Below, piece after piece: positions 10,855 to 27,301 of a stretch of 64,000 nt of DNA. The stretch is from positions 87,493 through 151,492 of the forward strand of contig URLJ01000002.1 of assembly GCA_900548675.1 (NCBI GenBank), given 5' to 3'. The DNA comes from an uncultured Mollicutes bacterium (lineage in GTDB: Bacteria > Bacillota_I > Bacilli_A > ML615J-28 > CAG-313). The first letter of the stretch is position 1, and each line of letters opens with the position of its first letter. The notes beneath the pieces are model-generated. The model did no database searches. It was not told the origin of the DNA and saw nothing but the letters and a program-made list of their open reading frames with translations. A program made the translations under genes and the position numbers.

Positions 10855-10894
10855 GAGGCCATCACAAACGTAAATGTTTGTGATGGCTTTTTTT
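10855..10894. terminator. Bidirectional rho-independent terminator between the convergent genes
   Basis: Stem gccatcacaaac / gtttgtgatggc with loop gtaaat. An A-tract lies upstream and a T-tract downstream. Confidence 0.8.
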
Positions 10895-11501
10895 AATAAT
10901 TATAATTAACTACTATTGAAACTTCTTTACCTGCAATTTTATATGTTACATTATAACGAGATATTTTATCATTATTGCACTTTACATCTATTATGACATT
11001 AGTAATACTATTTGTTTCATCTAAAGTTAACCCAAGTATTTCTTTTGCAGCATCTTGTGTTAAATAACCATATATTTTTGAAACACTTCTGCCATAGGAA
11101 ACAGAATAATCGCCTCCTGAAAATGAATTTTCATTTAATACTTTTTCGATGGAAAGTTTATTAGGCATTTCATCCTTGTTTAAAGTTTTAGTAGTTTCTT
11201 CACATAAATATAAATCTCCATACGGATCGCTATTTAAAGTATACTTTTGTTCTTTAAAAGTGATTTCTGCACCAATTTCATATGATTGTAATGTGTACCC
11301 TACTTTGGTGGCATTATCTGTTATTGTCATTTCAGATTCTATTTTCTTGCATCCTTCAGTATTGCTTATTTGCGTTTTAACAAGTTCTAGAAGTTCTTTT
11401 TTTGTTGTTTCATCTATAACATTATTACTACTACATGATGCCAAACAAATTAAACTTATAAATAGTATAAATAAACTAGATAGTTTTATTATTTTTTTCA
11501 T
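10893..11501 (-). CDS. Small lipoprotein (202 aa), last gene of the giant-protein operon
   Basis: Signal peptide with lipobox MKKIIKLSSLFILFISLICLASCSSNN. No recognisable catalytic motifs. Confidence 0.6.
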   Translation of the reverse strand: MKKIIKLSSLFILFISLICLASCSSNNVIDETTKKELLELVKTQISNTEGCKKIESEMTITDNATKVGYTLQSYEIGAEITFKEQKYTLNSDPYGDLYLCEETTKTLNKDEMPNKLSIEKVLNENSFSGGDYSVSYGRSVSKIYGYLTQDAAKEILGLTLDETNSITNVIIDVKCNNDKISRYNVTYKIAGKEVSIVVNYNY

Positions 11502-11513
11502 TTTACTTTCCTC

Positions 11514-14500
11514 CTAGAATCTTTCTCTTTTCAAAATAACAGCCATTGCCGAAACCATTGTCATAACCATTATAACACTTATTACGATTTGGGCATTTAG
11601 CGTTTTATTTGAAACAGTATATACGTTTTCTAAACTTGCCACATAATCAGTCCAAAGTTCTTCATAATCATGTAATATTTTTGCCTGTCTTTGATCAAGA
11701 AGAGCTAATCCCTTTTCTTCTACAGTAAGTGTTATTACTACATCATGAGCATCTTGTAGTACAGCAGCCTTATTATATTTATTTATTTTTTCTAATAATG
11801 CTTCTAAACTAGAAACTTTTACAAATGATTTTTCTAAAACACTTGATACTTCTTCTTTTACCGCTGTTAATTTAAGAAGATTATCACTTGTAATAAACGA
11901 TTGACCTATTTCATCTAGTGATGCTATAAAAGCATATATTTGATACTTAGTATCATACGAAGTATCAGTTATCTCAGGATATTTTTCCATTAGTTCTTTT
12001 TCTTTTTCCGTAACAGACTTAAACATTACATTTAGCTCAGTATAACGATTTATAATATCTTCAACCAAATTTTGATATTCAGAGTTGTTAGAAATTAACA
12101 ATAGTTCAACACCACTTAAAGCATCTATTTTTTCTTTTAAACGCGTGCTATATTCTATTATTTCTAAGCCACGTTTTCTTTCAAGTTCAAGGCGACCATG
12201 TTTTAGTTTATTTATTGTTTCAGCAATGTTTTCAATAACTTCAAATTCCACAATTTTTTCGCCTTCATAATTATCATCAATAATTGTAACAACAAATTTA
12301 TACTTACCTAAACCTTCAATTAATTCAACTAAAGTATTATCTTTGTATAATTTTTGTTCAATATTAAGATCAATAGTCTCTTTTAAACTTACAATTGGTT
12401 TAGTTATTGTGTTGATATTTATGTAATTTTCCTTTTCAATTCCTTCAATAATGATATTATCTGAAATATCTTTTTTCGCAATCGTTATTTCAAATTCTGT
12501 TTGTGAATCTTTTTCAAATTCATATGAAGTTTTATGAACTATTTCCACAACCATTATATATGTACCGGCATTGCGTAACTCAACTTCTGTTTTTGATGCA
12601 TCACCACTTCGGTAATACCATGCTTTAAAAGCACTAGCAGTTGCACTTTCAAGATAACCTTCAATATTTTTAGTGTAGTCGAAACCTTCAAAGATTTCTC
12701 CTGTATAAGTATAATTAGTTATTATATTTACTACTCTTACTTGAGGTTTTATTACTTCAAGCATAGCATCAACAATTGTAACATTATAATTACTATTAGC
12801 AGCAGTGCCTGTAATTTTGTGTATTCCACCACATAAGTGTTTGTGATAGTTTTCTTGTGTAATTGTTTTACCATTCATGATAACGTACATCGTGAGATTC
12901 AAATCATCATTTTCACATAGTGTACCAGAACTAATCACATAACTAAGTTGTGACATAAGGTCAGAATATGATGTTTTATTGTTAATTGTAAGATCATTAA
13001 TAGTAACCTCAATTGCGCGAGGAGTTATTGTGTAAATAGAATAATCACCATTTGTATAAGAGACCCTAACGTTATAATTGTTTGATTTAGTGTTAACTAT
13101 TAGTTTATATTCTCTTGCATCAAGTCCTGTTTCTTTTAAAACCTCTAGAATTTCACTTAATTCTTCATTTTCTTTTAAAGTACCACTTATTACTGTTGGA
13201 ACGACTTCTTTTATCATATCACCATACACAGATGTTTCATTAGGAACTTCTATTAAAATAGCACGTTTTTCAATAGTATAAATTCCATTAACAAATGTTA
13301 TATGATAATTTTGATTTACTACTTCACCTTTAATTAAATAAGTATTAGCATCTAAACCATCTTCTTTATATAATCTATAAATTGATTTAACATCTACTGA
13401 TTCATCTTTCTCTGCTAAACCTTGAATTGTACCTGTTAATTCTACTAATGATTCTCCATAGATACTATTCTTATCATCAATTAACACTGTAGCGTTACGT
13501 TTAGTAATCACATATGCATCAGCACCATTAATGAATTCTACTTGATAGTTATCATTTACAACTTCACCTATAATGTCATAACTACCAACGATATCACCTT
13601 TTTCTCTTGTTAATTTGATTATAGCATTAAGCGTATCAGCACTAGGAATTTCTGTTAAAGATTTAGCACCAAGAATTGTATCGGTATCACCATATACTTG
13701 TTCTACTTTTGTTATTTCAACAATTATTTGTTTTTTAACAATAGTATATTCTCTAATTTCTTGAGTTTTTAAAATATAATTTTCAGCATCAGCACCAGTT
13801 AAACCTAAAGTTTCAACGAAATAATTACCAACATTAACATTAGTTGTGGCTTTAGTAATAACATCGACATCATCTGTTTCTATTTTCGATGTAACTACAA
13901 ATAATGGATTTTGAATTGCTCCATTATATACTAACTCTTTTGTGGTAATGTCTACCATTATTTCTCTTCGTTCTACTTCGAAAGTTGCTTTATTTTGATA
14001 TTCAACTTCATTAACAGTAACATTAATTGTATAAATACCTGCCTTCTTTATAACACTAGTATCTTTTCCTGTTAAAGTGTAAGAGATACCATCTACAACT
14101 TCTTCTTTAGTGTCATGTTTTACAACTTTAATATTAGGAATTACTTCTATACCATCATACACTTTGCTTGGTAAAAGTAATTCTACTCCATTAGAGGTGA
14201 ATGTTACTTCAACATCATAATAAGTATTGTCAATTAAAATAGTAATTTCACCTAAAGTAATATTTTCAATTTCATAGTATTCACTACTTATGATTGGTTT
14301 AATTTTATATGTTCCAATATCTAAAATATCTAAAACATTTCCAAGTTTATCAATTGAAGTAATATATATATTATTTTGATAAAGTTCATAACTGAATTCA
14401 TAATTATCATCAATATTACCACTAACACTTATTTCTATATCCGATATTTTAGTCGCGGAAGCTTTCATTATGTCTTTATGATTTAATACAGCAACATCAA

Positions 14501-17500
14501 TTTTACGTTTTGTTATTTCATATGTACCATTTTCTACTATTATATTATAACCTGGATGTTTTTTGATTGCAGTTATAGCGTAACTACCGGGTTTTGTACC
14601 ATCTTCTTTTATTAAATCTACAACATCTTTAATAGTATCATTATTTAAAAGATTAGCAGTAGCACTCAATTCTAATAATTCATCGCCATAAGTGCTCATC
14701 TTATCATCAATAATTATCTTTACATCAACAGCTGTGACATTATTTGTATCACACACTAAAATATCTTTGGCATCATAATAATCTACATCATATACAAAAT
14801 CTGCTTTGATACCATTACTATTTACTATATACGTTATATTTGCTACTACAGCATTTTTCTTAGTACCATCTAAGAATGTTAAAACAGCATCAGCCTTTGT
14901 CGCACCATAAGGAACTGTTGTTACAGTTATTTTAGCAGGAACTATTTCGATATAATCAAGATACTCACTTATTATTTGCATCAAGTATTCGGTTTCTTTA
15001 GCAGTTCTATTTTCTTTAAGTGCGGCTAACTCTTCATAGAGTTTAACGGCATCGTTTATTAAATCGTTAGATGATTTAAGCATATTGTAATTATTCTTAT
15101 AAATAGCTACTTCCATACTGCTAACATATATATCATGGGTTAAATTAACTAAATACTTACTAGATGATAATTCCGCATTTAGTGTTACGTATTTAGTATT
15201 ATCGATAGATGCGACTAAATCGATAACTTCTGTTTTACCTTGATAGAAAGTAACTAATGCTTTAATATCGAGTGGTTTAATAGTGCTACCTACTTCATCA
15301 TATACTAATTCGTAATTATTAGTATTTTGTAATTCTATTGTTTTCACCACTTCATCAAGAATCGTTAAATCATTCATGACAACACTTGCATAGTGATTAT
15401 AGAAATCGCTTAGTGATTTGTAATATATTTCATCAACAGCTACGTTCGCTGTGAATTTACCAAGAGCGTTTGTTTTATATATATTACCAGCTATTTCAAT
15501 ACTGATGTTTTCTATTTCTTCACCAATATAGAATTCTACATCGCTATAGTATTTACCATCTTTAAATTCTAAGAATCTTCCTTTTAACACTTCATTAATT
15601 ACTACTTCTACATTTGGATGATAAGTAGAACTACCTGAGTTACCACTATAATAACTCATAATGTATTTTTCAAGGATAAATTCATCATCATTATAAGCTT
15701 TATATGTCTTACCATTTTCTAGTGGGATTCTTCCATATAAGCCGTTTATTTCAGCTTTTAATTCAAAAATACTTCGGTTATCAGTGTAACCTCCGCCAGC
15801 ACCATCAGTAATAATCTTAGGTGCAACATCAGCATCTTCTGCTACTATTATAGTACCTGTATTTGATGTAGTTTGGATTATTCCAAGGAACAATCCTTTA
15901 ACGTCTAGTGTACCATTATTAATTAATACGCCTGTTTGACTAAAGCCATTAGCCTTTAAGATGCTTGATGAAGGATATTCTTTACCACTCTTTGGTGCTT
16001 GTAACAAGCCATTATAGACAAGTAAACCACCTTTTTTAGCAATTTCAATAGTTCCATTTTCTTTAATTTCGATAATTGAACCAGGCATTAATTTGTAGTA
16101 TTTTTCTAAAATTACTTTCGCATCCGCATTTATTATAAAGTTATAAGTATACGGGATAGAAAGGGTCATTTCGCTTGATCCATAACCTTGAAGAGAAAAC
16201 TCACCCGCGGTTATTACGCCATTTACTTCAACAATATTTAAACCACTATCACCTAAATGAACTGTATTATATTCATGATTAACTGCTTTTCCATCATATG
16301 TAATTACTAAACTACTTCCCTCATGAAGCCAAATTAATGATCCTTCACTTGAAGCCGTTCTATTTTCTATTTTATCAACTAAAACTACATCTTGAGTGTG
16401 AATAGAACTCCAGAAATATAGAGAAGTTGTTCCTAAGATTTTTGATCCATAATTAACTATTTTTTGACATTGGATGTTAGCTGTTGCGAATTGTACAAAT
16501 GGGAACTGGTTAGCCCCATAAAGATCAGAAGTATTAGTACCACCTGAATAATTATCTACCATAAATGGTTCTTTTAAAATAGCTCCATCATTTAATGTCA
16601 ATACACCGCTTCCTACAACTAATCCTCTTACATCCATTTTCCCATTGATTATTAAAGAACCATTGTTAACAAGTTTCGCATAAGCACCACTTGTCATACC
16701 TTGAGAAGCTTGGTTTGGTGCGTGTTGTACACCACCAACTATCAATTTACCATTAATAGTTACAGTAGCATTTTCACTAACTGTTAACGTTACATAAGGT
16801 TTGATACCTCTACCCCATGATGGGCGTTTAACATTAGCTGTGCCTATCTTCATTCCTTCTGTATCATCTAATTCAAATGGTAAAAGAATTGTAACATTTT
16901 CATTAATTGTAATATCATTAGATATTTCCATATCGGCAAGTATTCTAATGAATACTTCACTAGCAGAAGCCGTTGCATTAAGCGCTTCTTCTAGGGTTGC
17001 ATAGAATAAATTATTACACATTATTTTTGAATTTTCCGTTATGAAAATAGCTTTTACATTTAACGATTTAGAAAGATTATAAGTAAGTGTTGTTTGTCTT
17101 GATAAAATTCGACCATCTTGGTCTACCCAACCATAAAATTTTTCACTAGTATTTGTATTTGTAGCTGTCAATATTGCTTTCTTTCCAGCAGCAACAGTGC
17201 TTCCACTAGGTATTTCTACGTCATCAATTTTGGCCGTAATTGTCGTAGTAGAAGAATTAGTCTCATAACTAAATTCAAAGTTAGCTGAAATGAAATCAAC
17301 GTTCGCAATACCTGCCATATCATCACGATCTCTACTATAACCATCTTTTACGTAACCGATATATACAATTGTTTCTTCATCTTCAGCTCCTGATACTGGT
17401 ATAATACCTTTTTGCCATCCAGTTTCACCTTGAGCTAGGCTTGTGTTTGTTTCTTGTAAATTAGCGCCAGCATATCCTACAAGATTAGCATATTCTGGAA

Positions 17501-20500
17501 GCACATGACCATAAGATTCCCGATCTGATGATAAAACTTTTCCAAATTCTAGTACTGTGTTTATACCATATAATAATTTATCACCACTATCGGCTGTACC
17601 ATATCTATTAGAATTCGCTTCACTACTTACGAAATAATCAAATATAATTACTCCGCTTCCCTTTACCTTAAAAGCAGCACCTGATGTTGTCTTATCTATA
17701 TTACTATTCGTTGTAACATAAACAAATTTACCATCGGTTGATTTCTCATTACTAAATATTAAAGGGTATGTTGTATCATTAATTAATTCGATTGGTTTTG
17801 ATTCAGGAAGAATTAAATATTTATTAATGTCAGGAATTAGATTAATATATAACTTAATTATTGTATCTTTTGCTTCATCATCAGTGTAAATGAAATCTAT
17901 TTCGTGACTTTGACTAAAATCAGATAATGTATAAAAATACTTGCCTTTATCCGATAATAGTGGAAGTTCTTTTCCATTATCGTTCACTTTAACACTATAA
18001 CCTTGTATATCATTAACTTGATATATCATTTGCGTATCAGTTAAGATTTCTGTAAGAATTATTTCATCATAGTTCACAACTGAAGCATTGCTTATTTCTA
18101 CACCATTTTTTAATACACTATATTGAATTTCATTTTGGATATTTATTTTTTCTTTGAAAACTACACATATTTCAATATCTGTAGTCACTCTGATAAAATC
18201 ATTATTTTGAGAAATAAGTTCACCATATGTTCCATCAGCTTTTTTAATTTTATATCCTACATATTCCCAGTTCGATTGAGGAAGAGTTTCTGCATTTAGT
18301 TGGAATTCATTGAAAGTTTTATATGTGTTTTCTGTATTCATCGCTTCTTTTACAAAGCCATATATATCATAAACACTACCCTCACCAATAGTAGTTACTT
18401 TTACACTATGGTCAGTAGCTTTTAAAGCTTGAACATTTCTAATTGAACATGCATACCACGCGTAGTATGTAAACATTATTTTGATTGTATGCGTTCCTAC
18501 TGTATCAAAGTTATAGGCAAATGATTTATAATTGTAATCACCATTATTACCATCACCTGAAAGGAGAATTTCTTTACCATCAAATATCGCTGTAACTTTA
18601 TTTGCTTCATATGTTGTATCATCATATTCAAAATAGAATATATCAGTATCAGTAATTGTAAATGTAACAGAAGCATTTTTAGCTTCATCAGCAACAGTTG
18701 TGAAAACTCTTGTTGTTTCATCTAAGACAAATTTTCTTTCATCTTCATATTTATAATAAACATTCGTATCATATAAAGTCCCATAATCACTCGTACTATT
18801 TGTCATTTTTCCTCTTGATTTAGGAGCATTATTATTTGTTACAGTGATGTTCTTAATATAAGCAGTATCAAGCCCACCTTTACTGCTTGAATCTTTTTTA
18901 TAATATACCTTTAATAGAACTTTATCACTTGTTGTATTAGCGAAAGTATATTCGGTCCATTTAGCATTATCTGTGAAAAATTCATCCAAATTAGTATGAT
19001 CGTTATTTTTTCCCTTAGTATTAGTTACAGTGCCATTTGCATCAAAATATAAATAGTCCCAATTATTCTCAGAAGAACAAGCATATATAAATGAAATTGT
19101 TTTACCACTTGCTATTTCAAAAACAACATAACTACTTGTACTGTCTTCTCCTTGATTGCTTGAATATATATATGTTGTACCATTATATGAACCAAAACTC
19201 CAAGGGTATGTTTCATTTAAAAGTAGTGAAACTCCTTCATACTTAACGCCTTTAGCGTTACATATATCATAGGTTACATCATCAACTTTTGTGAAAACAT
19301 TATCTTTAGCTACTACTAAATGACTTTCTAGGTCTATTAAATCACCATCAACAACAATACTATATGCAACCTTTTTATCAAATTCATCTACAGCTGTATA
19401 AGGAATTTTACTGTTAGAGGCAACCTCAGCACCATTAGATTTTATAGTAATAAATTCTGGTACATTTTTAACTGCCAAATAATAAGTAGCAGTACCAAAT
19501 GAATCTAAACTATAATTGAGTTCACTCTTTTTGAGAAAATTACTTAGCGAAGTAAGGGCTTCACCATTTTCATTCTGAGCTTCTAGTAATAAATCAAGAT
19601 TTGTTAATAATTTAACATCAGCAACGTTTATACCATTTAATGAGGCTTTTACTTTAACTGCATTAAATCCTTCTTTAAAATCTATTACTAATTGTTTTGT
19701 TTTTGATGTAGTCTTTACACCATTGTGAACAACTTCGACGTCTACTTCTAATCCAAAATTAAACACACAATTAGTCGCATTTTTAGTTGTAACATAATTA
19801 GGGTTATTAATTATATCAGCATAAATATCATTTTCATCAAGTATAACTTCATATAAAATAGAGCCAACATTATTGGTTTGACCAACTGTTAAAAAGTATT
19901 CATAAGTTAATTTATTATATTTATCGTATATTTTATTATACTCTTCAACTATTTTTTCACTTACATAAGGAGCTACTACATCGATACCTAATTGTACAGG
20001 CCACATATTAGAGTAGCATTCACTTACTATCGTATTGTTATTTCCTTTTCCGTTAAATAAATATACACTATTTCCTGTTGCGATGAGGTATGAATTAATG
20101 ATATTAACGTTTTTAATTACCGAAGCGTATTTGTCATGATTGATACTATACACTACACCTGCAGTATAACCATTCGAACCACCATTAGCCATACTATTTG
20201 TTATGTTAACATTTTCTACTTTAATGCTCGCTTCACTCATACATGTAACAAACGCAAGATACATCGAATTAGTGTAATTTTCCACTCTACCGATGTAACA
20301 ATTATTGATATTACAATTTATGATTTCTGTACCAAAGGCTTTATTAACACCGACAATAATTGCTGCTTTATTGAATAATGTGTTTCCACATAGAACCTCG
20401 ATGTTTTCAAAATTGAGGTTTTTAATCGTTGTCTTCTTGTTAAAAGTGCTAAATATTCCGTTACCCATTTCATTATTCGCAATGATATTAGCATTTTTAA

Positions 20501-20876
20501 TAGCATGATTATTACCATCTAAGGTTCCTGAAAAATTTTCAATTGGAGACCATTTGTGACCATTAATATCAATGTCAACTAGTAACTTAATTGTATAATT
20601 AGAAAAATCAAATCCTTTCTTACACATATCAGCTAAACCTAAAAACTCAGCTGCAGTTGATATTTCTAAAATATTATCATCATAATCAAAGAAACTTCTA
20701 TCTACTGTTTTACCATCCCAAACACTAACATCACCATTTGCTTCAACACTTTTTGAGAAAATTATATTTCCGCCAAAGATTCCTAGTGCTAATGTCATAA
20801 TAAGTAAAACAATATTGATATTTTTTAGAGATTTGAATATTTTATCTAATAACTTATTTTTTATTAAACTATTCAT
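11514..20876 (-). CDS. Giant surface protein (3120 aa). It has an N-terminal signal/TM, a beta-helix-like region, tandem MBG-type repeats and a C-terminal TM tail anchor.
   Basis: A single 9.36 kb ORF. N-terminus MNSLIKNK...IVLLIMTLALGIFGGNIIFSKSVEANG. Repeated ...NYxIxxVNGxYxITKR..VYGD.. units match MBG-domain repeats. C-terminus IVISVIMVMTMVSAMAVILKRERF, with no LPXTG. Confidence 0.85.
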   Translation of the reverse strand: MNSLIKNKLLDKIFKSLKNINIVLLIMTLALGIFGGNIIFSKSVEANGDVSVWDGKTVDRSFFDYDDNILEISTAAEFLGLADMCKKGFDFSNYTIKLLVDIDINGHKWSPIENFSGTLDGNNHAIKNANIIANNEMGNGIFSTFNKKTTIKNLNFENIEVLCGNTLFNKAAIIVGVNKAFGTEIINCNINNCYIGRVENYTNSMYLAFVTCMSEASIKVENVNITNSMANGGSNGYTAGVVYSINHDKYASVIKNVNIINSYLIATGNSVYLFNGKGNNNTIVSECYSNMWPVQLGIDVVAPYVSEKIVEEYNKIYDKYNKLTYEYFLTVGQTNNVGSILYEVILDENDIYADIINNPNYVTTKNATNCVFNFGLEVDVEVVHNGVKTTSKTKQLVIDFKEGFNAVKVKASLNGINVADVKLLTNLDLLLEAQNENGEALTSLSNFLKKSELNYSLDSFGTATYYLAVKNVPEFITIKSNGAEVASNSKIPYTAVDEFDKKVAYSIVVDGDLIDLESHLVVAKDNVFTKVDDVTYDICNAKGVKYEGVSLLLNETYPWSFGSYNGTTYIYSSNQGEDSTSSYVVFEIASGKTISFIYACSSENNWDYLYFDANGTVTNTKGKNNDHTNLDEFFTDNAKWTEYTFANTTSDKVLLKVYYKKDSSSKGGLDTAYIKNITVTNNNAPKSRGKMTNSTSDYGTLYDTNVYYKYEDERKFVLDETTRVFTTVADEAKNASVTFTITDTDIFYFEYDDTTYEANKVTAIFDGKEILLSGDGNNGDYNYKSFAYNFDTVGTHTIKIMFTYYAWYACSIRNVQALKATDHSVKVTTIGEGSVYDIYGFVKEAMNTENTYKTFNEFQLNAETLPQSNWEYVGYKIKKADGTYGELISQNNDFIRVTTDIEICVVFKEKINIQNEIQYSVLKNGVEISNASVVNYDEIILTEILTDTQMIYQVNDIQGYSVKVNDNGKELPLLSDKGKYFYTLSDFSQSHEIDFIYTDDEAKDTIIKLYINLIPDINKYLILPESKPIELINDTTYPLIFSNEKSTDGKFVYVTTNSNIDKTTSGAAFKVKGSGVIIFDYFVSSEANSNRYGTADSGDKLLYGINTVLEFGKVLSSDRESYGHVLPEYANLVGYAGANLQETNTSLAQGETGWQKGIIPVSGAEDEETIVYIGYVKDGYSRDRDDMAGIANVDFISANFEFSYETNSSTTTITAKIDDVEIPSGSTVAAGKKAILTATNTNTSEKFYGWVDQDGRILSRQTTLTYNLSKSLNVKAIFITENSKIMCNNLFYATLEEALNATASASEVFIRILADMEISNDITINENVTILLPFELDDTEGMKIGTANVKRPSWGRGIKPYVTLTVSENATVTINGKLIVGGVQHAPNQASQGMTSGAYAKLVNNGSLIINGKMDVRGLVVGSGVLTLNDGAILKEPFMVDNYSGGTNTSDLYGANQFPFVQFATANIQCQKIVNYGSKILGTTSLYFWSSIHTQDVVLVDKIENRTASSEGSLIWLHEGSSLVITYDGKAVNHEYNTVHLGDSGLNIVEVNGVITAGEFSLQGYGSSEMTLSIPYTYNFIINADAKVILEKYYKLMPGSIIEIKENGTIEIAKKGGLLVYNGLLQAPKSGKEYPSSSILKANGFSQTGVLINNGTLDVKGLFLGIIQTTSNTGTIIVAEDADVAPKIITDGAGGGYTDNRSIFELKAEINGLYGRIPLENGKTYKAYNDDEFILEKYIMSYYSGNSGSSTYHPNVEVVINEVLKGRFLEFKDGKYYSDVEFYIGEEIENISIEIAGNIYKTNALGKFTANVAVDEIYYKSLSDFYNHYASVVMNDLTILDEVVKTIELQNTNNYELVYDEVGSTIKPLDIKALVTFYQGKTEVIDLVASIDNTKYVTLNAELSSSKYLVNLTHDIYVSSMEVAIYKNNYNMLKSSNDLINDAVKLYEELAALKENRTAKETEYLMQIISEYLDYIEIVPAKITVTTVPYGATKADAVLTFLDGTKKNAVVANITYIVNSNGIKADFVYDVDYYDAKDILVCDTNNVTAVDVKIIIDDKMSTYGDELLELSATANLLNNDTIKDVVDLIKEDGTKPGSYAITAIKKHPGYNIIVENGTYEITKRKIDVAVLNHKDIMKASATKISDIEISVSGNIDDNYEFSYELYQNNIYITSIDKLGNVLDILDIGTYKIKPIISSEYYEIENITLGEITILIDNTYYDVEVTFTSNGVELLLPSKVYDGIEVIPNIKVVKHDTKEEVVDGISYTLTGKDTSVIKKAGIYTINVTVNEVEYQNKATFEVERREIMVDITTKELVYNGAIQNPLFVVTSKIETDDVDVITKATTNVNVGNYFVETLGLTGADAENYILKTQEIREYTIVKKQIIVEITKVEQVYGDTDTILGAKSLTEIPSADTLNAIIKLTREKGDIVGSYDIIGEVVNDNYQVEFINGADAYVITKRNATVLIDDKNSIYGESLVELTGTIQGLAEKDESVDVKSIYRLYKEDGLDANTYLIKGEVVNQNYHITFVNGIYTIEKRAILIEVPNETSVYGDMIKEVVPTVISGTLKENEELSEILEVLKETGLDAREYKLIVNTKSNNYNVRVSYTNGDYSIYTITPRAIEVTINDLTINNKTSYSDLMSQLSYVISSGTLCENDDLNLTMYVIMNGKTITQENYHKHLCGGIHKITGTAANSNYNVTIVDAMLEVIKPQVRVVNIITNYTYTGEIFEGFDYTKNIEGYLESATASAFKAWYYRSGDASKTEVELRNAGTYIMVVEIVHKTSYEFEKDSQTEFEITIAKKDISDNIIIEGIEKENYININTITKPIVSLKETIDLNIEQKLYKDNTLVELIEGLGKYKFVVTIIDDNYEGEKIVEFEVIENIAETINKLKHGRLELERKRGLEIIEYSTRLKEKIDALSGVELLLISNNSEYQNLVEDIINRYTELNVMFKSVTEKEKELMEKYPEITDTSYDTKYQIYAFIASLDEIGQSFITSDNLLKLTAVKEEVSSVLEKSFVKVSSLEALLEKINKYNKAAVLQDAHDVVITLTVEEKGLALLDQRQAKILHDYEELWTDYVASLENVYTVSNKTLNAQIVISVIMVMTMVSAMAVILKRERF
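12950..14990 (-). repeat. Intragenic tandem array of about 8-10 MBG-like repeat units (about 80 aa each) within the 3120-aa protein
   Basis: Recurrent ITKR(K/N)..V, VYGD/IYGES and NYxV/I..xNG motifs at a regular period, for example DAYVITKRNATVLIDDKNSIYGESL and NGIYTIEKRAILIEVPNETSVYGDM. Confidence 0.6.
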
Positions 20877-20911: not shown

Positions 20912-23900
20912 CTATTTATCTTTTAATATATCGTAAGCAGATGTATCAAATATATCTTTTTCTTGCTTTTCAACTGTTAATGAACTTGTTGCATCATATA
21001 ACAAGAAACGGAATTTTTCTTTACCTGCAGTATAATATATAAATTTAGGATTGCTTGGTGAAAAATAATCTACATCAACTGTATAATCATGTAAATCTTC
21101 TTTAGCAGTAGATGTTGCTTCATCAAGTGCAACACAACTATAGTTTTTACCACCACCATAATACGCAATCGCACCATTAACATAAGTCTCACCATTATAA
21201 CTAGCTAATATTTTTTCATGTGATATATCTTCATCATAGTATTCTTTTAATAGACTACTGAAATCCAAATTGAACCCTATTTTAGAAGCCACCGTTGTAA
21301 GGTTACCATTACTATCTTTGATCCCTTCAATTAAAGTGTCACTATTTACAGAAGATACCTTTTTCCAATCATAGAAACGTACATCATCTTTTAATCTCAA
21401 TAATGCAGGATAACTAGTACCGCTAATTCCACCCCAGCCAAGTTCACTGCCAAATTTAAAGTTATCACTGAAGTCCCAACCATGGAGAACTAATCCCCCA
21501 AACATCGCTTCAAGACCTATGCTGAATAATCCGGCATTCATAAATACACAGTTTTGCACCGTGATATCTGTTAGAATATAATTATTGTAAAATTTTTCAT
21601 CTTTATAATTATTATTATCAATTACATAGTTTTTAGTGCCATTACTTAAGTATGGTGATGCATCATCATAATAACTTACGTTGGTAATAGCATCTTGTGT
21701 CGTACTAATTGTTTTATTTGTAACACGTGTTGTTTTCATCACTTGGTTTGTACCAATCTTTAATAAGAATTCACGAGCATTAGTAAAAAGTGTTTTTGAG
21801 AAAGTAGCAGTTATGCGGTAATCACTAGGATTAAAGGTAGTATCGGTATGAGCTTTACCAAAAACTCTAACTGCAGTTCTACCATTATTTATTCTTGAGT
21901 AAGAAACATTACAATTATCGCCAACTATTTCTAAAACAGTACCACAATAATCTAAATTAGTTAAATCATATTCGCCATTACTTGAGGCGATGCTTTCATC
22001 ATTACATCCTTTTAATTCAACATTATGAATATTTATATTATCCTTTAAAACTGCAAAAATAATATTATCTTGAGATTTTACTGCTAAGTTGTTTGGAGCA
22101 CCGTTATAATCTTTATTGTATCTTACTAAATCAATTGGGCCACGATAAACGCGCGTACCAAATTTTTTATTTAACAATTGTGTCAAATTGTCTGCTGATA
22201 TAGCGTAACCATTTCCATATAAATCTGTTGATATTTCTACTGCGTAACGAATAACTGCATCTTTTAATTTACCAGTATTTTTATAATATGTAACATCACA
22301 AGTAGGATCCATCGTTGTAAGACAACTTAATGCATACTTTTCATAATTATCATCTTTAGTCATTTTTTCTAGTTCTGGTGCTAGCATAATATTGTTTTTC
22401 AAAACCATTACGTATTCTTTATCTTCAATATTCTTGCTGCAAACCATCAACTCTTCATATGTAGATATATTTATACCATTACTTAAAACATTTAATTTGA
22501 TGCTAGTTGAAGTATTGAGGTTATTCTTATCGATAACATCTACTTCCACTAAGCCTGTTTTACCTCCTAAATAGAAATAACCATCTTCACCAATTGTAAG
22601 GATATCTTCATCACTACTTGTTAAAATTAATTTAGAATAATCTATTTTTTCACTACCATTAGATAACATTCCAATTAAAGGTAGTCTCATTTTATGATCT
22701 TTATCAAACGGAATTAAACTCTTTAAAGATGTAGCACTATCAAATGAATAATATCCAAGGGTAGGAATTTCAGTGAATGATCCACTAACAACTTTAACAG
22801 GCATCTCATCATTATCTATTGCGAGAGATACATAATTGCTGTAGATTTTAACTTCTAGTGTTTCTACATCAAATAATTTTACCCCCGTGTCTTTTTGTGT
22901 GATTGAACATGTTAATTTAAATACACCTTCTAATTTATTAGTAGGTTTTATAAAACATCCAAAATAATAATTATTAGTTAATGGATTAACTTCCGCAAGT
23001 GTTATAACTTCAGCAGCATCTTTTTCTGATAAGCTAAATTTAACACTTACCTTTGATATATCTTTTATATCTGTATATAAAGTTGCAACTCTTGTATTTG
23101 AGGCATTCTTTCTCATCAATACTTCTAAGTTTTTATCAGCGTAATTAGCATATGTTAATAATGTTTCTTCAGTATGGTTTATACCAATAATAACTGCAAC
23201 ATAATTAACATCACTAACCTTTACAAGGATTACATCAAGTTTATCACCTATTTGAATAGCGTATGTCTTTTCATTAGATAAGAAATCTTTAGGATTATTA
23301 AATTCATACTCACCTGTTTGATCATCCCATGAAAGAGCTTTTCTTGTCATAGTAGAACCGAGAACAACAATTTTATTATTACCATCTAAATCAGTTACTT
23401 TAAGAGCACCTATGCTTGTTGGCGCTAACTCTTCTTTTTCAGTACTTCCAAAGCCACTTACTTTAACAGTTGTCTTATAAGCATATTTCAAATCTAGTGA
23501 TTCATCTTTTTTTATTATTTCAGTCAAATCTAAAACTTCAATCTCAGGTTCAGGATGAACAACAGGTTTTTCATGTGGTGTTACCTTCACTATAATAGCA
23601 CTTAAAGTCGTACCTTTTACATCGTCGCGAACTACTAATAATTCTAGTTCATAACCTATTTTTATTCCTTTAGTTTTTTCATTAGTTAAGAAATTACTAG
23701 GATTACTAAATGTATATACACCTTTTTCTTTATCCCAAGTAAGAGCGTTAGTTGAAGCGGTTGATCCAATTACTACTACTCTATTTTCACCATTTAAATC
23801 TGTCGCTTTAAAACAACCAGTTTCACTTGCTGCATCATCATCATAACTGAGGTTATTCCCCCAACTTTCAACTAAAACAGTTGTACGATATGCTTTCTTT

Positions 23901-24064
23901 AAATTTTCATTAGAATCTAAAGCACATATTTCTTGTAAACTTTTCCCTATTTTAGCAGGTTCTTTAAAACCTTTATCACCACTATTTCCTCCGCCACATC
24001 CTACAGCTACTACTGCTAGTACTAATACTAACAACATTCCTAAAATTTTTTTGATGTTTTTCAT
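20912..24064 (-). CDS. Large lipoprotein (1050 aa) with an internal duplicated roughly 100-aa module and a beta-helix-like C-terminal region
   Basis: Lipobox MKNIKKILGMLLVLVLAVVAVGCGGG. The units ...KATDLNGENRVVVIGSTASTNALTWDKEKGVYTFSNPSNFLTNEKT.. and ..KVTDLDGNNKIVVLGSTMTRKALSWDDQTGEYEFNNPKDFLSNEKT.. are repeated. Asn/Gly-rich beta-helix-like repeats follow. Confidence 0.8.
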   Translation of the reverse strand: MKNIKKILGMLLVLVLAVVAVGCGGGNSGDKGFKEPAKIGKSLQEICALDSNENLKKAYRTTVLVESWGNNLSYDDDAASETGCFKATDLNGENRVVVIGSTASTNALTWDKEKGVYTFSNPSNFLTNEKTKGIKIGYELELLVVRDDVKGTTLSAIIVKVTPHEKPVVHPEPEIEVLDLTEIIKKDESLDLKYAYKTTVKVSGFGSTEKEELAPTSIGALKVTDLDGNNKIVVLGSTMTRKALSWDDQTGEYEFNNPKDFLSNEKTYAIQIGDKLDVILVKVSDVNYVAVIIGINHTEETLLTYANYADKNLEVLMRKNASNTRVATLYTDIKDISKVSVKFSLSEKDAAEVITLAEVNPLTNNYYFGCFIKPTNKLEGVFKLTCSITQKDTGVKLFDVETLEVKIYSNYVSLAIDNDEMPVKVVSGSFTEIPTLGYYSFDSATSLKSLIPFDKDHKMRLPLIGMLSNGSEKIDYSKLILTSSDEDILTIGEDGYFYLGGKTGLVEVDVIDKNNLNTSTSIKLNVLSNGINISTYEELMVCSKNIEDKEYVMVLKNNIMLAPELEKMTKDDNYEKYALSCLTTMDPTCDVTYYKNTGKLKDAVIRYAVEISTDLYGNGYAISADNLTQLLNKKFGTRVYRGPIDLVRYNKDYNGAPNNLAVKSQDNIIFAVLKDNINIHNVELKGCNDESIASSNGEYDLTNLDYCGTVLEIVGDNCNVSYSRINNGRTAVRVFGKAHTDTTFNPSDYRITATFSKTLFTNAREFLLKIGTNQVMKTTRVTNKTISTTQDAITNVSYYDDASPYLSNGTKNYVIDNNNYKDEKFYNNYILTDITVQNCVFMNAGLFSIGLEAMFGGLVLHGWDFSDNFKFGSELGWGGISGTSYPALLRLKDDVRFYDWKKVSSVNSDTLIEGIKDSNGNLTTVASKIGFNLDFSSLLKEYYDEDISHEKILASYNGETYVNGAIAYYGGGKNYSCVALDEATSTAKEDLHDYTVDVDYFSPSNPKFIYYTAGKEKFRFLLYDATSSLTVEKQEKDIFDTSAYDILKDK
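23164..23881 (-). repeat. Intragenic duplication of two roughly 300-bp units separated by about 400 bp
   Basis: Visible at the DNA level (compare 23340-23420 with 23740-23820) and at the protein level. Confidence 0.55.
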
Positions 24065-24084
24065 TTTCTCATTTCCTTTCCTTA

Positions 24085-24819
24085 CTAATTTTCAAATATT
24101 TCCATAAATTGATCTTCAAGTGTTTTGTTTGGATTATTCTTTTTAAATTCACTAATTACAATATCTGCAACTATTTCGCCACCATTTATGATATAAGCTC
24201 TATCACACGTTTTTTCAACAGCATCTAAATTATGAGAAGAATACAAAACAGCATTACCTTTTTCTTTGTAGACTTCCATATAATCCCTTAGAGCTTTACT
24301 AGTCTGTGGATCAAGACCAGTGAGTGGTTCATCTAAAAGCCACAATTTAGGACGATGGATTAAATTAGCCATTAAACAAATTTTTTGACGCATTCCATGT
24401 GAATAAGAAGAAATTAAATTATAAATTGCATCTCCAAGCTTAAAGACTTGTTGCATTTCTTCAATTCGCTCTTTTCTTTTGTCTTCTGCTACACCATGGA
24501 TATCTGCAATAAAATTTATATATTCAAACCCTGTCATCTTTTCAAACATAGCATGATTATCAGGAACATAACCAATTTCATTTTTAGCTTTTAAATCATC
24601 TTTAACAATATCATAACCGCATATCTTAATACTACCTTTATCAAAAGAGAAAAAACCTGTTAAACACTTTATGGTAGTAGATTTTCCTGCCCCGTTTTTA
24701 CCAAGTAACCCAACTATTTCTCCTGCATAACAATCGATATTTATGTCTTTTACCGCATAGGTCGTTTGTTTATTATATTTTTTATATAAACCTTTTATTT
24801 CTACTATTTTTTCTTTCAT
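24085..24819 (-). CDS. ABC transporter ATP-binding protein (ABC-2/BcrA-like)
   Basis: Walker A GKNGAGKSTT, signature variant YSHGMRQK, Walker B LWLLDEPLTGLD. Confidence 0.85.
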   Translation of the reverse strand: MKEKIVEIKGLYKKYNKQTTYAVKDINIDCYAGEIVGLLGKNGAGKSTTIKCLTGFFSFDKGSIKICGYDIVKDDLKAKNEIGYVPDNHAMFEKMTGFEYINFIADIHGVAEDKRKERIEEMQQVFKLGDAIYNLISSYSHGMRQKICLMANLIHRPKLWLLDEPLTGLDPQTSKALRDYMEVYKEKGNAVLYSSHNLDAVEKTCDRAYIINGGEIVADIVISEFKKNNPNKTLEDQFMEIFEN

Positions 24820-24829
24820 TTACTTTCAC

Positions 24830-25573
24830 CTAAATAACATTAACTAATATTTTAATTGTTTTTTCTTCATTTGAAATATTACCATTTTCATCAAGTAAAA
24901 CATATTTATAAGTTACGCTAACATAACTACTTCCTTTTTTAACTCCTGTTACTTTCCAACTGAACTTATCTGTAATAACTAGCACTTGTTCAGTTACGTT
25001 TTGAATGCTGAATTTACCCGTACCTAAAAGATAATCTCTTCCAATATTATATTTTTCTTGTAATTCTTCATCAAGTGGTAAATATTCAGTTATCGTGGTT
25101 TCTTCACCCACATTAATTGTGATTTCTCCTTTTTCAAAGTCAATTATTTTTACATCTTCTTTATTCATGTCTTTAGTTTTAATTCCCAAGGGTTCTGAGC
25201 AAATAAAATTAAAAGTTACAGCATCACTTCGATCCATCGCATTAACTCTTACCTTTATCCATCCGAGTGATTTAGGAATTACTACGCCATCATCCGTGAC
25301 TTCTACTTTTGCCTGCGGTTTGTTTTCAACTTCTTCGATAGTATATTTTAGTGTAATATTTACATCTTTTGGCATCACTATCGCCTCTATTTTTAGAAGA
25401 GGGTTATTTTCTAATTCTTTAGCGATATCCACTACCCTTGTGTGACGGCCATCTACACTAACACTTGTAACAGTAGGATTCACAACTATTGCGGTTTTTT
25501 TAATTACAACACTTGTTGTAAAAATTAAAATGATTGGAATTATTAGTATTAGAATTATTATTTTTTGTTTCAT
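24830..25573 (-). CDS. Membrane-anchored extracellular protein (N-terminal TM plus a beta-rich Ig-like ectodomain) associated with the ABC transporter
   Basis: MKQKIIILILIIPIILIFTTSVV is a TM helix. The remainder is beta-rich. The gene is wedged between the permease and the ATPase with 7-10 nt gaps. Confidence 0.5.
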   Translation of the reverse strand: MKQKIIILILIIPIILIFTTSVVIKKTAIVVNPTVTSVSVDGRHTRVVDIAKELENNPLLKIEAIVMPKDVNITLKYTIEEVENKPQAKVEVTDDGVVIPKSLGWIKVRVNAMDRSDAVTFNFICSEPLGIKTKDMNKEDVKIIDFEKGEITINVGEETTITEYLPLDEELQEKYNIGRDYLLGTGKFSIQNVTEQVLVITDKFSWKVTGVKKGSSYVSVTYKYVLLDENGNISNEEKTIKILVNVI

Positions 25574-25579
25574 AACTCT

Positions 25580-27250
25580 TTACCCCTCAAATTCATGATA
25601 TCTTTTATTTAACGATTTTATCAAATATAGATACGATAATACTAATATTACAACTACGCTAATAGTTAAAAAGCCGATGGATAACCACATAGCTAAAGCG
25701 CTAGATTTAAGAGTTGAAACCACTACGGATAGTGTGAGTGAACCTCCTCCTAAAATAATTGATACGATAAGACCTAGGAAGATAACAACCGATGTTCCAA
25801 CATTTTCTTCCGCATCATCACTATTAGTTATTTTAGGATTATTTAAGTCTTTTCTCGTCGCAAACATTATTTCTGATGCCGATAAGAGACTCGCAATTAT
25901 AAATATAACTAAGGCTTGATACCACGTAATGAAGCCTGTTGCGAGAAGTATTACATCACTTGCGATAAGGCCTATTTCCGAAACAATTAAACAGAACAAA
26001 ACTTTACTTAAAACGATTTGTTTACCACTAACTGGTAATGTTTTTAAAATATAAAGCATCTTTCCATCTCTTGAAATATTTGTGGTACAAAAAGTATTTG
26101 TTATTACAACAAACATTGTTATTACAAATATCGCTAATTCATAATCACAATTCACTAAAGCAATACCAGGTATTTTAATCATCATTTCTTTCATAATATT
26201 AACACAAACATATATCATAAATGGCAGAGTAACTGTCGTCGCAAGATATTGGAATGCATAACTTGGTGTTCTTAAAACCACCTTAAATTCTTTTATAATT
26301 AGGCTTGTAATAATATTCTGTTTTTTATATCTTACTTTAGGTGTTTTTTCTCTTTTATTTATGCCTTCAAGTTTGATTTGAAGTAGTTTTTTGTATACTA
26401 CACCAACAATAAAAACACTAAGAACAACACACAAGAAAGATAGTCCAATAATTATCATTAATGATAAAAAATAATTTTGATTTATCATCATTTTCGCAAA
26501 TAAATTAATCGGATATGCACGATCACATATTTTTTCTATTACTGCTATTCGCCGCAATTCAAAGAAGTATGTCATATCACCACTTTGAAGTAGGGCGGTT
26601 AAAACATTTAAAAATATACTATATAAATAAAAACCAATACCCAAGATTATTACATATATTACTAGATGGAGGATAAATTTCTTTTCAATAAAATCCATCA
26701 CATAATTGTATCCAATTGATAATACGGCGGCAATTCCACATGATACCATTGGAATTAAGAAAAGGTGAAGGACAATTGAAGAATAGAACGCTACTCCACT
26801 TGCATAACTACTGATATTAGCCACTACAATGCTGACGGGTATTATGATTATAGCAGTCGATGCTATTTGAGATAAATATATTTTAATTAACTTATACAAG
26901 AAAATGCTCTTTGAACTAATTGGATGAACCATAAGAACTTCCATATCTTTTGTACTCATCGTTGTCGTATATATCTTTTTCACACCCAGTAAAACGTTAA
27001 TTACGATGATTCCTCCATAAGTTATGGTAAGTATTTCAAATAATCTTCTTATTTCATTTGATGGATCATCAAACGTTTTTGTAATATACATTTTAGTAAA
27101 TTTATAATACACATATATAAATGTTCCATAAAGAATGAGGATTAAAAGGATTGTGGATATGTATCCTAATATATCTTTTTTATTTCTTTTAAAAATTGAT
27201 AAAAACCTTTCAGTAAAATCTTTTTTAAATAAAATTAGTACTTTATTCAT
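25580..27250 (-). CDS. Polytopic ABC transporter permease (about 12 TM; ABC-2 type exporter-like)
   Basis: 556 aa of alternating hydrophobic helices. It is the first gene of the operon and is followed closely by the ATPase. Confidence 0.6.
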   Translation of the reverse strand: MNKVLILFKKDFTERFLSIFKRNKKDILGYISTILLILILYGTFIYVYYKFTKMYITKTFDDPSNEIRRLFEILTITYGGIIVINVLLGVKKIYTTTMSTKDMEVLMVHPISSKSIFLYKLIKIYLSQIASTAIIIIPVSIVVANISSYASGVAFYSSIVLHLFLIPMVSCGIAAVLSIGYNYVMDFIEKKFILHLVIYVIILGIGFYLYSIFLNVLTALLQSGDMTYFFELRRIAVIEKICDRAYPINLFAKMMINQNYFLSLMIIIGLSFLCVVLSVFIVGVVYKKLLQIKLEGINKREKTPKVRYKKQNIITSLIIKEFKVVLRTPSYAFQYLATTVTLPFMIYVCVNIMKEMMIKIPGIALVNCDYELAIFVITMFVVITNTFCTTNISRDGKMLYILKTLPVSGKQIVLSKVLFCLIVSEIGLIASDVILLATGFITWYQALVIFIIASLLSASEIMFATRKDLNNPKITNSDDAEENVGTSVVIFLGLIVSIILGGGSLTLSVVVSTLKSSALAMWLSIGFLTISVVVILVLSYLYLIKSLNKRYHEFEG

Positions 27251-27292
27251 AAAATCTCCTGTTGATACGATTTTCCCCCTCTTTACTTGTTT

Positions 27293-27301
27293 ATTATAAC
27301 A
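27293..27301 (-). promoter_or_regulatory. Extended -10 element (TGtTATAAT) upstream of the permease start. This is the likely promoter of the ABC/giant-protein operon.
   Basis: The minus strand reads aTGtTATAAT about 40 nt upstream of the ATG at 27250. The SD agagggggaaaa lies between. No clear -35. Confidence 0.4.

Follow-up and report, generated by a model that had tools for sequence, protein, structure and literature searches.

A conserved ABC transporter cassette with an anchored partner protein and a giant adhesin-like protein in uncultured gut Bacillota

We tentatively propose (probability about 0.4) that a six-gene locus in the 64,000-nucleotide stretch of DNA analysed here (the window) represents an as yet uncharacterised cassette of the cell envelope, conserved among uncultured gut Bacillota, in which an ABC complex acts through a membrane-anchored partner protein on an adhesin. 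The same set of ATPase, permease, partner, giant protein and small lipoprotein is also found in some 70 related species from the gut, all of them uncultured, and because of this recurrence it is nearly certain that the parts work together. In the proposed mechanism, the ATPase and permease would form a membrane complex with the transmembrane (TM) anchor of the partner. ATP binding and hydrolysis would then either switch the partner, on the outer side of the membrane, to another state or supply it with a ligand taken from the membrane, for which NosFY driving NosD and FtsEX driving PcsB/EnvC could serve as models of ATP-driven control. The C-terminal domain of the partner could subsequently act with or on the giant adhesin, in its assembly, anchoring, processing or release.

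The genes are located in the window as follows, in the order of transcription:

25580..27250, minus strand: permease, 556 aa, first gene of the predicted operon
24830..25573, minus strand: ig247, 247 aa, aligning to residues 1-220 of the ~1050-1090-aa partner protein of relatives
24085..24819, minus strand: ABC ATPase, 244 aa, matching PF00005 at 5e-30 (5.4e-30)
20912..24064, minus strand: lipo1050, 1050-aa lipoprotein with a VAVGC lipobox, matching the partner of relatives by blastp
11514..20876, minus strand: giant3120, 3120 aa, fibrillar-adhesin-like surface protein
10893..11501, minus strand: lipo202, 202 aa, with an LASC lipobox

All six ORFs were recovered exactly where the first-pass annotation had placed them, on the minus strand and packed within 10893-27250 of the window. 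The intergenic gaps, in transcription order, are 6, 10, 20, 35 and 12 nt, so that the annotated range of 7-35 nt is right at its upper end and one nucleotide too long at its lower. A Shine-Dalgarno-like purine run precedes the start codon of every one of the six genes. The elements flanking them are:

27396..27447, minus strand: intrinsic terminator of the upstream TIR/DUF6273 gene, a hairpin with a U-run
27293..27301, minus strand: extended -10 promoter motif TGTTATAAT, seen in the sequence itself
10858..10887, not assigned to one strand: bidirectional intrinsic terminator, a 12-bp GC-rich stem with U-runs on both strands

Since the spacing, the ribosome-binding sites and the flanking terminators fit a single transcription unit, the six genes probably form one co-transcribed operon. 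The terminator at 27396-27447 (-24.8 kcal/mol, z -6.9) marks its 5' boundary and separates it from the upstream gene. At the other end, a bidirectional terminator had been annotated before and was borne out by the U-runs together with the hairpin energies of the two strands (-21.9 and -26.6 kcal/mol, z -8.3 and -11.0); this terminator is common to the operon and a convergent uridine-kinase-like gene. No hairpin was found in the intergenic gaps between the operon genes. Five weak terminator-like sites inside the operon all fall within ORFs, and the 6 found in the region against 4.6 expected correspond to the chance rate. The motif TGTTATAAT is 42 nt upstream of the first ATG, that of the permease, with a weak -35 region that gives no good match, and it is a plausible operon promoter. 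The extended -10 motif is therefore present where it had been annotated, but it cannot be distinguished from background, as 124 promoter-like matches in the region compare with 120.3 in shuffles.

The core of the cassette is a type V (ABC-2) transporter, consisting of a homodimer-type nucleotide-binding protein and a single, fused 12-TM permease. The ATPase consists of a nucleotide-binding domain alone and belongs to the DrrA/GldA-like ABC-2 class; its best NCBIfam match was drrA, followed by GldA, both below their own cut-offs. The motifs that place it in type V are kept in 68 homologues: Walker A (GKNGAGKST), the signature (YSHGMRQK), Walker B with its D-E pair (LLDEP) and the H-loop (SSHN). 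The Q-loop glutamine is replaced by a conserved aspartate throughout the family. In the model of the permease, two 6-TM halves are fused into a 12-TM chain with the type V (ABC-2) fold, each half preceded by a K-D/E-F...R connecting-helix motif. Six helices per half, no domain swap, an N-terminal connecting helix and short extracellular helices, all features of type V transmembrane domains, were found, and the extracellular loops are short only. The structures nearest to the model were NosY and Rv1217c, and the nearest full-length one was a drug-efflux pump. Against Pfam PF09847 (12TM_1) the permease scored 23.9 bits, where the cut-off is 33.2, and many homologues carry precomputed PF09847 or PF16949 matches. 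The wider 12TM_1 family is also found without partners, as in a second pair in locus L024 and a pair in locus L076.

A three-component ABC transporter had been annotated initially. The ATPase and permease stand, while blastp showed the third component to be part of a split accessory protein, the partner. In relatives the unsplit partner is an anchored protein of ~1000-1090 aa, of which ig247 aligns to residues 1-220, and residues ~370-1050 of lipo1050 match the C-terminal two-thirds. Judged by these alignments, ig247 and lipo1050 are the two halves of one ancestral gene, split in this lineage only, and the ATPase gene has moved to a position between the two. The membrane anchor attributed to ig247 was confirmed and its Ig-like region is supported by family matches, but ig247 is an N-terminal piece that has come away from the partner and not a component of its own. 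It has a single N-terminal TM helix with a conserved, proline-containing L-x-L-[VI]-I-P-L motif, followed by an Ig-like (Big_2-type) region; Big_2 was matched in 13 of 17 partner family members and the anchor motif was present in 56 of 69 family representatives. The conservation of this motif argues for a specific intramembrane contact. Residues 1-~370 of lipo1050 are specific to the lineage and comprise the lipobox and two tandem repeats of ~130 aa. The lipoboxes of lipo1050 and lipo202 agree with their previous annotation as lipoproteins. Following the split, lipo1050, which is the effector half, and the TM/Ig half are separate chains without a covalent link.

The conserved C-terminal domain of the partner is located as follows:

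20915..22507, minus strand: C-terminal domain of the partner, ~530 aa (residues 520-1050), an uncatalogued family

Searches of this domain against Pfam, NCBIfam and PDB sequences gave no match, and 349 cluster representatives were found among 1.84 billion, almost always as the C-terminus of proteins of ~1000-1100 aa. N618, Q665, D666, R764, N773 and N974 are invariant, and R729, R733 and E765 are kept by 97% or more of the 97 sequences aligned. These invariant Q-D, R-E, N and R residues hint at a site of catalysis or binding. With a pLDDT of 42.7, and below 50 in the region that bears on a beta-helix, the AlphaFold model of lipo1050 was too poor for its fold to be judged, and the N-terminal half of this low-confidence model resembles only tandem OB folds and Ig arrays. 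Among 17 partner homologues, NosD, Beta_helix and hydrolase families gave no match, the first two even at E<=5; weak HL_N-beta (hyaluronate-lyase N-terminal) matches were seen in 5 of the 17.

Such residues could also be those of an enzyme acting on an exported molecule. The transporter would then export or flip, as a type V system, a lipid, a glycolipid or a hydrophobic peptide, and modification at the outer face may tether or decorate the giant, so that the coupling would come from a shared substrate and not from mechanotransmission. The invariant polar residues, the short extracellular loops of the permease, the conserved synteny and the presence of exporters of lipids, peptides and drugs (among them Rv1217c, ABCA3/ABCA4, ABCG5, PmtD and CcmB) among the closest structures are all consistent with this. 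However, genes for biosynthesis (glycosyltransferases, or the making of lipids or peptides) are neither in the cassette nor consistently beside it, the giants are anchored already, by TM helices or as lipoproteins, and the conservation of the partner's TM anchor suggests that partner and transporter touch directly, which leaves such an exporter somewhat unlikely.

The protein on which the partner may act is the product of the longest gene. Its annotated parts are:

15777..17009, minus strand: Gly-rich module of ~400 aa, residues 1290-1700, from an HMM of the module
12246..14720, minus strand: MBG/YDG repeat array, residues 2053-2877, PF18676 MBG_2 at 1.9e-21, YDG, and an iterative HMM
11532..11588, minus strand: C-terminal TM anchor, residues 3097-3115, hydropathy 2.72, followed by KRERF

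From its N-terminus, giant3120 has a signal peptide, a head region of ~2000 aa that is unannotated, the MBG/YDG stalk, a helical segment and the TM anchor. It thus has the layout that defines fibrillar adhesins (Monzon et al.), with its great length, repeated stalk domains, an anchor and a distal non-stalk region, and a role in adhesion is predicted. The stalk is formed by 5 clear and ~3 degenerate repeats of ~70 aa. MBG repeats had been assigned to both large proteins, lipo1050 included, and were found in giant3120 only. The Gly-rich module is a hallmark of the cassette-linked giants, as its HMM matched only adjacent giants, in 34 loci, and it occurs once per protein, always beyond the stalk as seen from the anchor. 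In Pfam and PDB sequences the module had no match beyond single weak ones to MinC_C and a bactofilin. The first-pass annotation had called both large proteins beta-helix proteins, which could not be verified for either: beta-helix families in Pfam, NCBIfam and PDB-sequence profiles gave no significant match to lipo1050 or giant3120. Short strand triplets that repeat and motifs rich in N and G would fit a beta-helix fold, without proving it. The gene for the small lipoprotein lipo202, which matched no family in Pfam or NCBIfam, has homologues (186-207 aa, with lipoboxes) directly following the giant gene in 11 loci.

A more ambitious form of the proposal, which we regard as doubtful, is a hitherto unrecognised ABC-powered surface machine of monoderm gut bacteria, where a type V motor, through a dedicated TM-anchored partner with a new enzyme-like domain, would control the giant adhesin, for instance by making its deployment, tensioning, release or movement depend on ATP. 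It would be a Gram-positive counterpart of GldAFG-SprB or of Lap-type regulated adhesion and, if true, would add two families of protein domains to those known and set up a functional class of its own among ABC-2 systems. Quite improbable, in our view, is an exporter of glycopolymer of the Wzm/Wzt, TarGH or KpsMT kind, with a polymer that is modified or cleaved by the partner and bound by the giant, although the DrrA/ABC-2 class of the ATPase, the presence of Wzm, KpsM and TarG among the structural matches of the permease, and the weak HL_N-beta matches would all agree with it.

Coupling of the ABC system to the partner and the giant is supported by a comparison of 70 permease-homologous loci from uncultured gut Bacillota (Clostridia/Bacilli), with permease identities of 26-57%. 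The ATPase gene adjoins the permease gene in 67 of the 70 loci, and of 67 loci that could be assessed, 63 have an anchored partner of ~1000-1090 aa directly after the permease, with median gaps of -4 nt from ATPase to permease and 3 nt from permease to partner. For the giant 57 loci could be assessed: 48 have an MBG-repeat giant next to the cassette genes and 9 do not, which shows that it need not be present in cis. The association has outlived two or more permutations of gene order: the giant and small lipoprotein are upstream in L011, L015, L017, L019, L021 and L028 and downstream elsewhere, and the ATPase gene is relocated in the window locus, L007 and L008. The association persists where permease identity is only 26-30%, and the flanking genes are unrelated housekeeping genes that differ between lineages. 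The link between ABC system and giant genes suggested by the first-pass annotation, which would have fallen had giants never been found beside the ABC system in relatives, is thus upheld by a nearly invariant trio and a mostly adjacent giant, and functional coupling of the two is supported at the level of gene content and order.

There is little chance that we are dealing with an ordinary pump for efflux or immunity, inherited beside surface-protein genes without a functional link. The partnerless pairs in L024 and L076, the drug-efflux pump as nearest full-length structure and the 9 loci without a giant could be read in this way, but the trio is kept with overlapping or nearly overlapping genes, the link to the giant outlasts rearrangement and divergence, and the cassette stays intact while its flanks vary by lineage.

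Each of the extracytoplasmic proteins has a hydrophobic N-terminal targeting sequence (signal peptide, lipobox or signal-anchor) of its own, and we therefore infer that the surface proteins of the cassette reach the surface via Sec and not via the ABC system. Secretion or membrane insertion of the giants by the ABC system itself, in the manner of a type I secretion system (T1SS), was put forward earlier as coupled export and agrees with the conserved adjacency, but is very improbable given these Sec-type signals, a transporter of type V and not the type IV half-transporter of T1SS, the lack of a membrane-fusion or outer-membrane component in the cassette, and a monoderm-type Bacillota host with a SASP gene nearby. 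The processing or sensing role suggested together with export may still apply.

Among known systems, type I secretion of the RTX/Lap type was rejected also because the nucleotide-binding domain and the 12-TM permease are separate proteins and the giant combines a signal peptide with a C-terminal TM anchor. Rv1217c-Rv1218c of Mycobacterium tuberculosis is a type V exporter with fused transmembrane domains, a drug/lipid efflux pump without a dedicated extracytoplasmic partner or adhesin genes, and identity is only 10-13%. In NosDFY, the NosF ATPase, the ABC-2 permease NosY and the periplasmic beta-helix protein NosD serve the maturation of nitrous-oxide reductase. Membership of this system failed on the nos gene context and on the NosD/CASH family of the partner: the cassette permease is one fused 12-TM chain, its partner is TM-anchored with Ig domains and has no NosD, CASH or Beta_helix signature, and its neighbours are housekeeping or unrelated genes without nosZ, nosL or nosR. 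The host is an anaerobic gut Bacillota, and the set includes a giant adhesin and a small lipoprotein. FtsEX-PcsB/CwlO/EnvC and further ABC systems of the mechanotransmitting kind (type VII) share with the cassette the concept that intracellular ATP hydrolysis regulates an extracytoplasmic effector, a protein encoded with the transporter or acting together with it.

GldA-GldF-GldG comprises an ABC-2 ATPase and a permease together with a large extracytoplasmic accessory protein, and is tied to the giant SprB adhesin in the gliding of Bacteroidota; we know of no transported substrate for it. The cassette resembles it in all these components and in the genetic tie to a giant surface adhesin. It was rejected as a member, as its ATPase scored 191.6 bits against the GldA equivalog TIGR03522 (cut-off 402.6) and a search of its proteins for ABC_transp_aux, the GldG-type auxiliary domain, found none. 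Phylum and envelope also differ, and T9SS and gliding genes are absent on the cassette side.

For the giant itself, MBG, YDG and Flg_new are listed as stalk domains of fibrillar adhesins (PMC9210967), and giant3120 is like the Firmicutes adhesins with such stalks in its length, signal peptide, stalk, terminal anchor and unannotated distal region. A sortase-anchored LPXTG protein was ruled out, as LPxT[GAND] is absent throughout the 3120 aa. Whereas those adhesins use LPXTG and sortase, giant3120 has its C-terminal TM helix and its relatives an N-terminal lipobox, and it differs further by a family-specific Gly-rich module and by being consistently encoded with an ABC transporter.

The six reading frames that the first-pass annotation had assigned to one minus-strand operon were all found, running from 27250 down to 10893 with gaps of 6, 10, 20, 35 and 12 nt between them and a purine-rich ribosome-binding site before each of the six start codons. 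The genes of this cassette and the signals around them are as follows.

27396-27447, strong intrinsic terminator of the upstream gene, -24.8 kcal/mol
27301-27293, minus strand, candidate promoter motif TGTTATAAT, 42 nt 5' of the first ATG, with a poor -35
25580-27250, minus strand, permease (perm556), 556 aa
24830-25573, minus strand, anchored protein (ig247), 247 aa
24085-24819, minus strand, ATPase (atp244), 244 aa
20912-24064, minus strand, large lipoprotein (lipo1050), 1050 aa
11514-20876, minus strand, giant MBG-repeat surface protein (giant3120), 3120 aa
10893-11501, minus strand, small lipoprotein (lipo202), 202 aa
10858-10887, both strands, intrinsic terminator at the operon 3' end

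The bidirectional terminator claimed for the operon end was confirmed, with a 12-bp stem, U-runs on both strands and strong folding (-21.9 and -26.6 kcal/mol, equalled by 0 of 200 shuffles). Terminator-like sites internal to the operon are weak, are confined to ORFs and are about as frequent as chance predicts. The operon promoter at 27301-27293 is plausible at best, as its -35 is poor and shuffled versions of this 30% G+C DNA give about as many promoter-like matches (120.3) as the real sequence (124). An Rfam search of the operon returned no riboswitch and no other structured RNA.

To compare the cassette across genomes, one genome per species (GTDB release 232) was scanned with a permease profile, and the ORFs of the 70 loci obtained were called and then searched with the six window proteins by phmmer and blastp. 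Every one of the 70 loci belongs to an uncultured gut MAG (with labels such as Clostridia, Christensenella-like, Bacilli and Mollicutes), and permease identities are 26-57%. The ATPase adjoins the permease in 67 of the 70 loci, a gene for a partner protein of ~970-1160 aa begins right after the permease in 63 of the 67 that could be assessed, and an MBG-type giant gene is directly adjacent in 48 of 57 assessable loci. Giants that were missed by phmmer contained MBG_2 or MBG_3, together with Flg_new in two of the three checked. The genes are tightly packed, with median gaps of -4 nt between ATPase and permease (an ATGA overlap) and 3 nt between permease and partner. Permease and partner are coupled at the gene level. 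The commonest gene order is ATPase, permease, partner, giant. A second order (giant, small lipoprotein, ATPase, permease, partner) is found in L011, L015, L017, L019, L021, L028 and L077 of the related loci, and the order permease, ig247, ATPase, lipo1050, giant is restricted to the window, L007 and L008, with the genes outside the cassette varying between lineages and including no glycosyltransferases or other biosynthetic genes. The comparative check of the proposed ABC-giant coupling found the trio together at nearly all assessable loci and the giant beside it at most of them. That the set is kept despite rearrangement and deep divergence is strong evidence for the parts of the cassette working together.

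Some loci depart from the usual layout. Two tandem partner paralogues are present at 6209-12239 of L052, ATPase and permease share one 816-aa ORF at 3931-6381 of L049 (a fusion or an assembly frameshift), and module-bearing giants flank the core on both sides in L021 (1-8658 and 15000-21662). Six loci (L013, L019, L022, L034, L045 and L051) come from bins with implausible names, such as Parasutterella excrementihominis, Bacteroides sp., Ruminococcus bicirculans and Butyrivibrio crossotus. As their cassettes are close to those of Clostridia MAGs, this suggests that these bins are mislabelled or contaminated.

The 247-aa protein had been regarded as a separate third transporter component, but alignment to the partner of relatives indicates that it is half of a split gene. 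It has a single N-terminal TM helix, is without a Pfam match of its own and aligns to residues 1-~220 of the relatives' partners, in which the equivalent region matches Big_2 in 13 of 17 members. Residues ~370-1050 of lipo1050, a protein with a lipobox, two ~130-aa tandem repeats near its N-terminus and no family match in Pfam or NCBIfam, align to residues ~400-1075 of the same partners. The ancestral partner therefore consisted of a TM anchor, Ig-like domains and a C-terminal domain. On these alignments, ig247 and lipo1050 are parts of one ancestral protein that was split in the window's clade, where the ATPase gene moved between the two halves and the C-terminal half acquired both a lipoprotein signal and additional repeats at its N-terminus. 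These repeats (residues ~40-295) are clade-specific, stand in for the ancestral TM-Ig region after the split and resemble tandem OB folds in a low-confidence model (Foldseek matches to Teb1 AB and LEF-3). The AlphaFold model of lipo1050, built on a 5-sequence alignment of at least 58% identity, reached a pLDDT of 42.7, and Foldseek with it gave Ig-array and OB-fold matches only, in the N-terminal half, so that it gave no confirmation of the beta-helix label proposed earlier.

In an exhaustive search with the partner C-terminal domain (residues 520-1050), 349 of 1.84 billion cluster representatives matched, and the domain nearly always lies at the C-terminus of ~1000-1100-aa proteins. An N-terminal hydrophobic anchor is present in 122 of the 125 full-length representatives and a lipobox in 6 of the 125. 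In 56 of 69 representatives the anchor carries the motif L-x-L-[VI]-I-P-L, whose proline is almost always kept, and this conservation suggests a specific intramembrane contact. Within the domain, N618, Q665, D666, R764, N773 and N974 are invariant, while R729, R733 and E765 are unchanged in 97% or more of 97 aligned sequences; such conserved polar residues would fit a catalytic or ligand-binding site. This domain had no relative in Pfam, NCBIfam or PDB sequences, and a PDB sequence-profile search of the partner family gave nothing except Big_2 domains. Homologue searches with lipo1050 and with the partner profile returned little besides proteins of the same clade and Big_2 repeat proteins that are unrelated (e.g. 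P0127).

The cassette transporter was shown to have a type V ABC fold, and its ATPase motifs are intact. The ATPase is a bare nucleotide-binding domain of the DrrA/GldA-like ABC-2 class, and its Walker A, signature (YSHGMRQK), Walker B (LDEP) and H-loop are kept in 68 homologues. The permease has ~12 TM helices in two halves, with a K-[DE]-F...R motif ahead of each half, and scored under the threshold of PF09847 (12TM_1). Its AlphaFold model (32-sequence alignment, pLDDT 75.8) was matched by Foldseek to Rv1217c (8k1n_C) over 509 columns. When the cassette was scanned with PADLOC together with the TIR gene upstream of it, generic ATPase matches alone were returned. The Q-loop Gln is replaced by Asp (G-Y-V-x-D) in at least 90% of 68 aligned cassette ATPases (window 24085-24819, L007-L076), and the remaining catalytic motifs are all canonical.

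The giant protein begins with a signal peptide (predicted cleavage after VEA, around residue 46), followed by ~2000 residues without a family match, an MBG/YDG array at residues 2053-2877 (5 clear and ~3 degenerate repeats), a ~200-residue helical segment and a C-terminal TM helix with KRERF after it; an LPXTG motif was searched for and is absent. The sole region besides the MBG repeats that is common to all giants is a Gly-rich module of ~400 aa (window residues 1290-1700), whose HMM matches cassette-linked giants only, once per giant, in 34 loci. The window giant is anchored at its C-terminus and has the module on the N-terminal side of the stalk, and in the distant (Christensenellales-type) giants inspected there is an N-terminal lipobox and the module is at the C-terminal end. 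The order anchor, stalk, module is therefore common to both types, which suggests that the module is the distal functional head of the giant. It had no match in Pfam or PDB sequences, and single weak matches to MinC_C and bactofilin, both beta-helical families, are no more than suggestive; a PDB sequence-profile search with the whole giant gave nothing except Big_2 domains. Kinship of the module with the partner C-terminal domain was rejected (blastp E of 0.3 or higher). The small lipoprotein lipo202 has no family match, and its family (186-207 aa, with a lipobox) is encoded directly 3' of the giant gene in 11 loci. A Rosetta-stone link, with lipo202 fused to giants elsewhere, was rejected, as it is a separate gene in every case.

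The synteny result is solid, and the function of the cassette is drawn from it and from the sequences entirely by inference. The large proteins would be exported by Sec with lipoprotein processing and not by the ABC system. The ABC system would form a complex with the TM anchor of the partner and use ATP to alter the state of the partner or to give it a membrane-derived ligand, and the C-terminal domain of the partner would then work with or on the giant adhesin. The main rival is substrate export, in which a lipid or peptide is flipped outward and then used by the partner. A glycopolymer exporter is less likely, and so is an efflux pump merely co-located with surface genes. Direct secretion of the giant by the ABC system is unlikely, because the extracytoplasmic cassette proteins carry signal peptides or lipoboxes. 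The earlier observation is thus largely confirmed and its interpretation partly supported, in that synteny at the 70 loci speaks for the coupling and direct export is unlikely.

The window is 100% identical over 20.7 kb to the human-gut metagenome contig ERZ1307805 NODE_40, and 99.1-99.6% identical to contigs of other samples and to MAG GCA_016293885.1. In L004 the giant gene (called at 2916 aa) seemed to carry a strain-level indel in its 5' region; this was rejected, being a scaffold gap of 100 N at L004 15018-15117. The flanking housekeeping genes (nusA, rimP, thiI and a SpoU methylase) and an alpha/beta-type SASP gene indicate a chromosomal locus of a low-G+C Bacillota with a spore-protein gene. 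The presence of this SASP gene (34725-34925, minus strand, 66 aa, PF00269) suggests that the host, uncultured and with relatives under the labels Bacilli or Mollicutes, may be spore-forming.

Immediately upstream of the operon and separate from it is a three-gene unit (27452-32864, minus strand) encoding a 575-aa SPFH/Band-7 protein with C-terminal zinc ribbons, a 232-aa protein without a family match and a 989-aa protein with TPR repeats, TIR, DUF6273 and a C-terminal biotinyl/lipoyl-like barrel-sandwich domain. The unit is kept in all strains seen and had no PADLOC match, and the TIR and SPFH pair could represent a system for defence or signalling that is not yet catalogued. Elsewhere, a tRNA gene (52712-52783, minus strand, Rfam RF00005, 52.3 bits) occupies the 5' end of a 356-aa ORF (51715-52785), the true start of which is probably further downstream.

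The carriers are abundant uncultured Bacillota of the human and animal gut (labelled as Christensenellales-like, Clostridia and Bacilli MAGs), in which a conserved transporter-giant adhesin cassette would be a candidate factor for colonisation and would add a new example of ABC transporters acting via extracytoplasmic partners. ATPase, 12-TM permease and then TM-Ig partner can serve as a genomic marker for this adhesin class, and the partner C-terminal domain (~349 cluster representatives) and the Gly-rich module, both with no catalogued relatives, are targets for structure determination.

No source gives names for the six cassette proteins, and no description of such a cassette was found in the literature on PF09847/12TM_1 and on MBG with ABC transporters. 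The novelty appears to lie in the conserved set as such, in the dedicated TM-Ig partner and its uncatalogued domain, and in the hallmark module of the giants. Taken singly, the ABC-2 transporter and the fibrillar adhesin are components of known kinds. The layout of giant3120, including its MBG/YDG stalk, is that of a fibrillar adhesin; PMC9210967 lists MBG, YDG and Flg_new among stalk domains. Rv1217c-1218c consists of one fused 12-TM permease and a homodimeric nucleotide-binding protein (PMC11406275), which is the architecture we infer for the window transporter.
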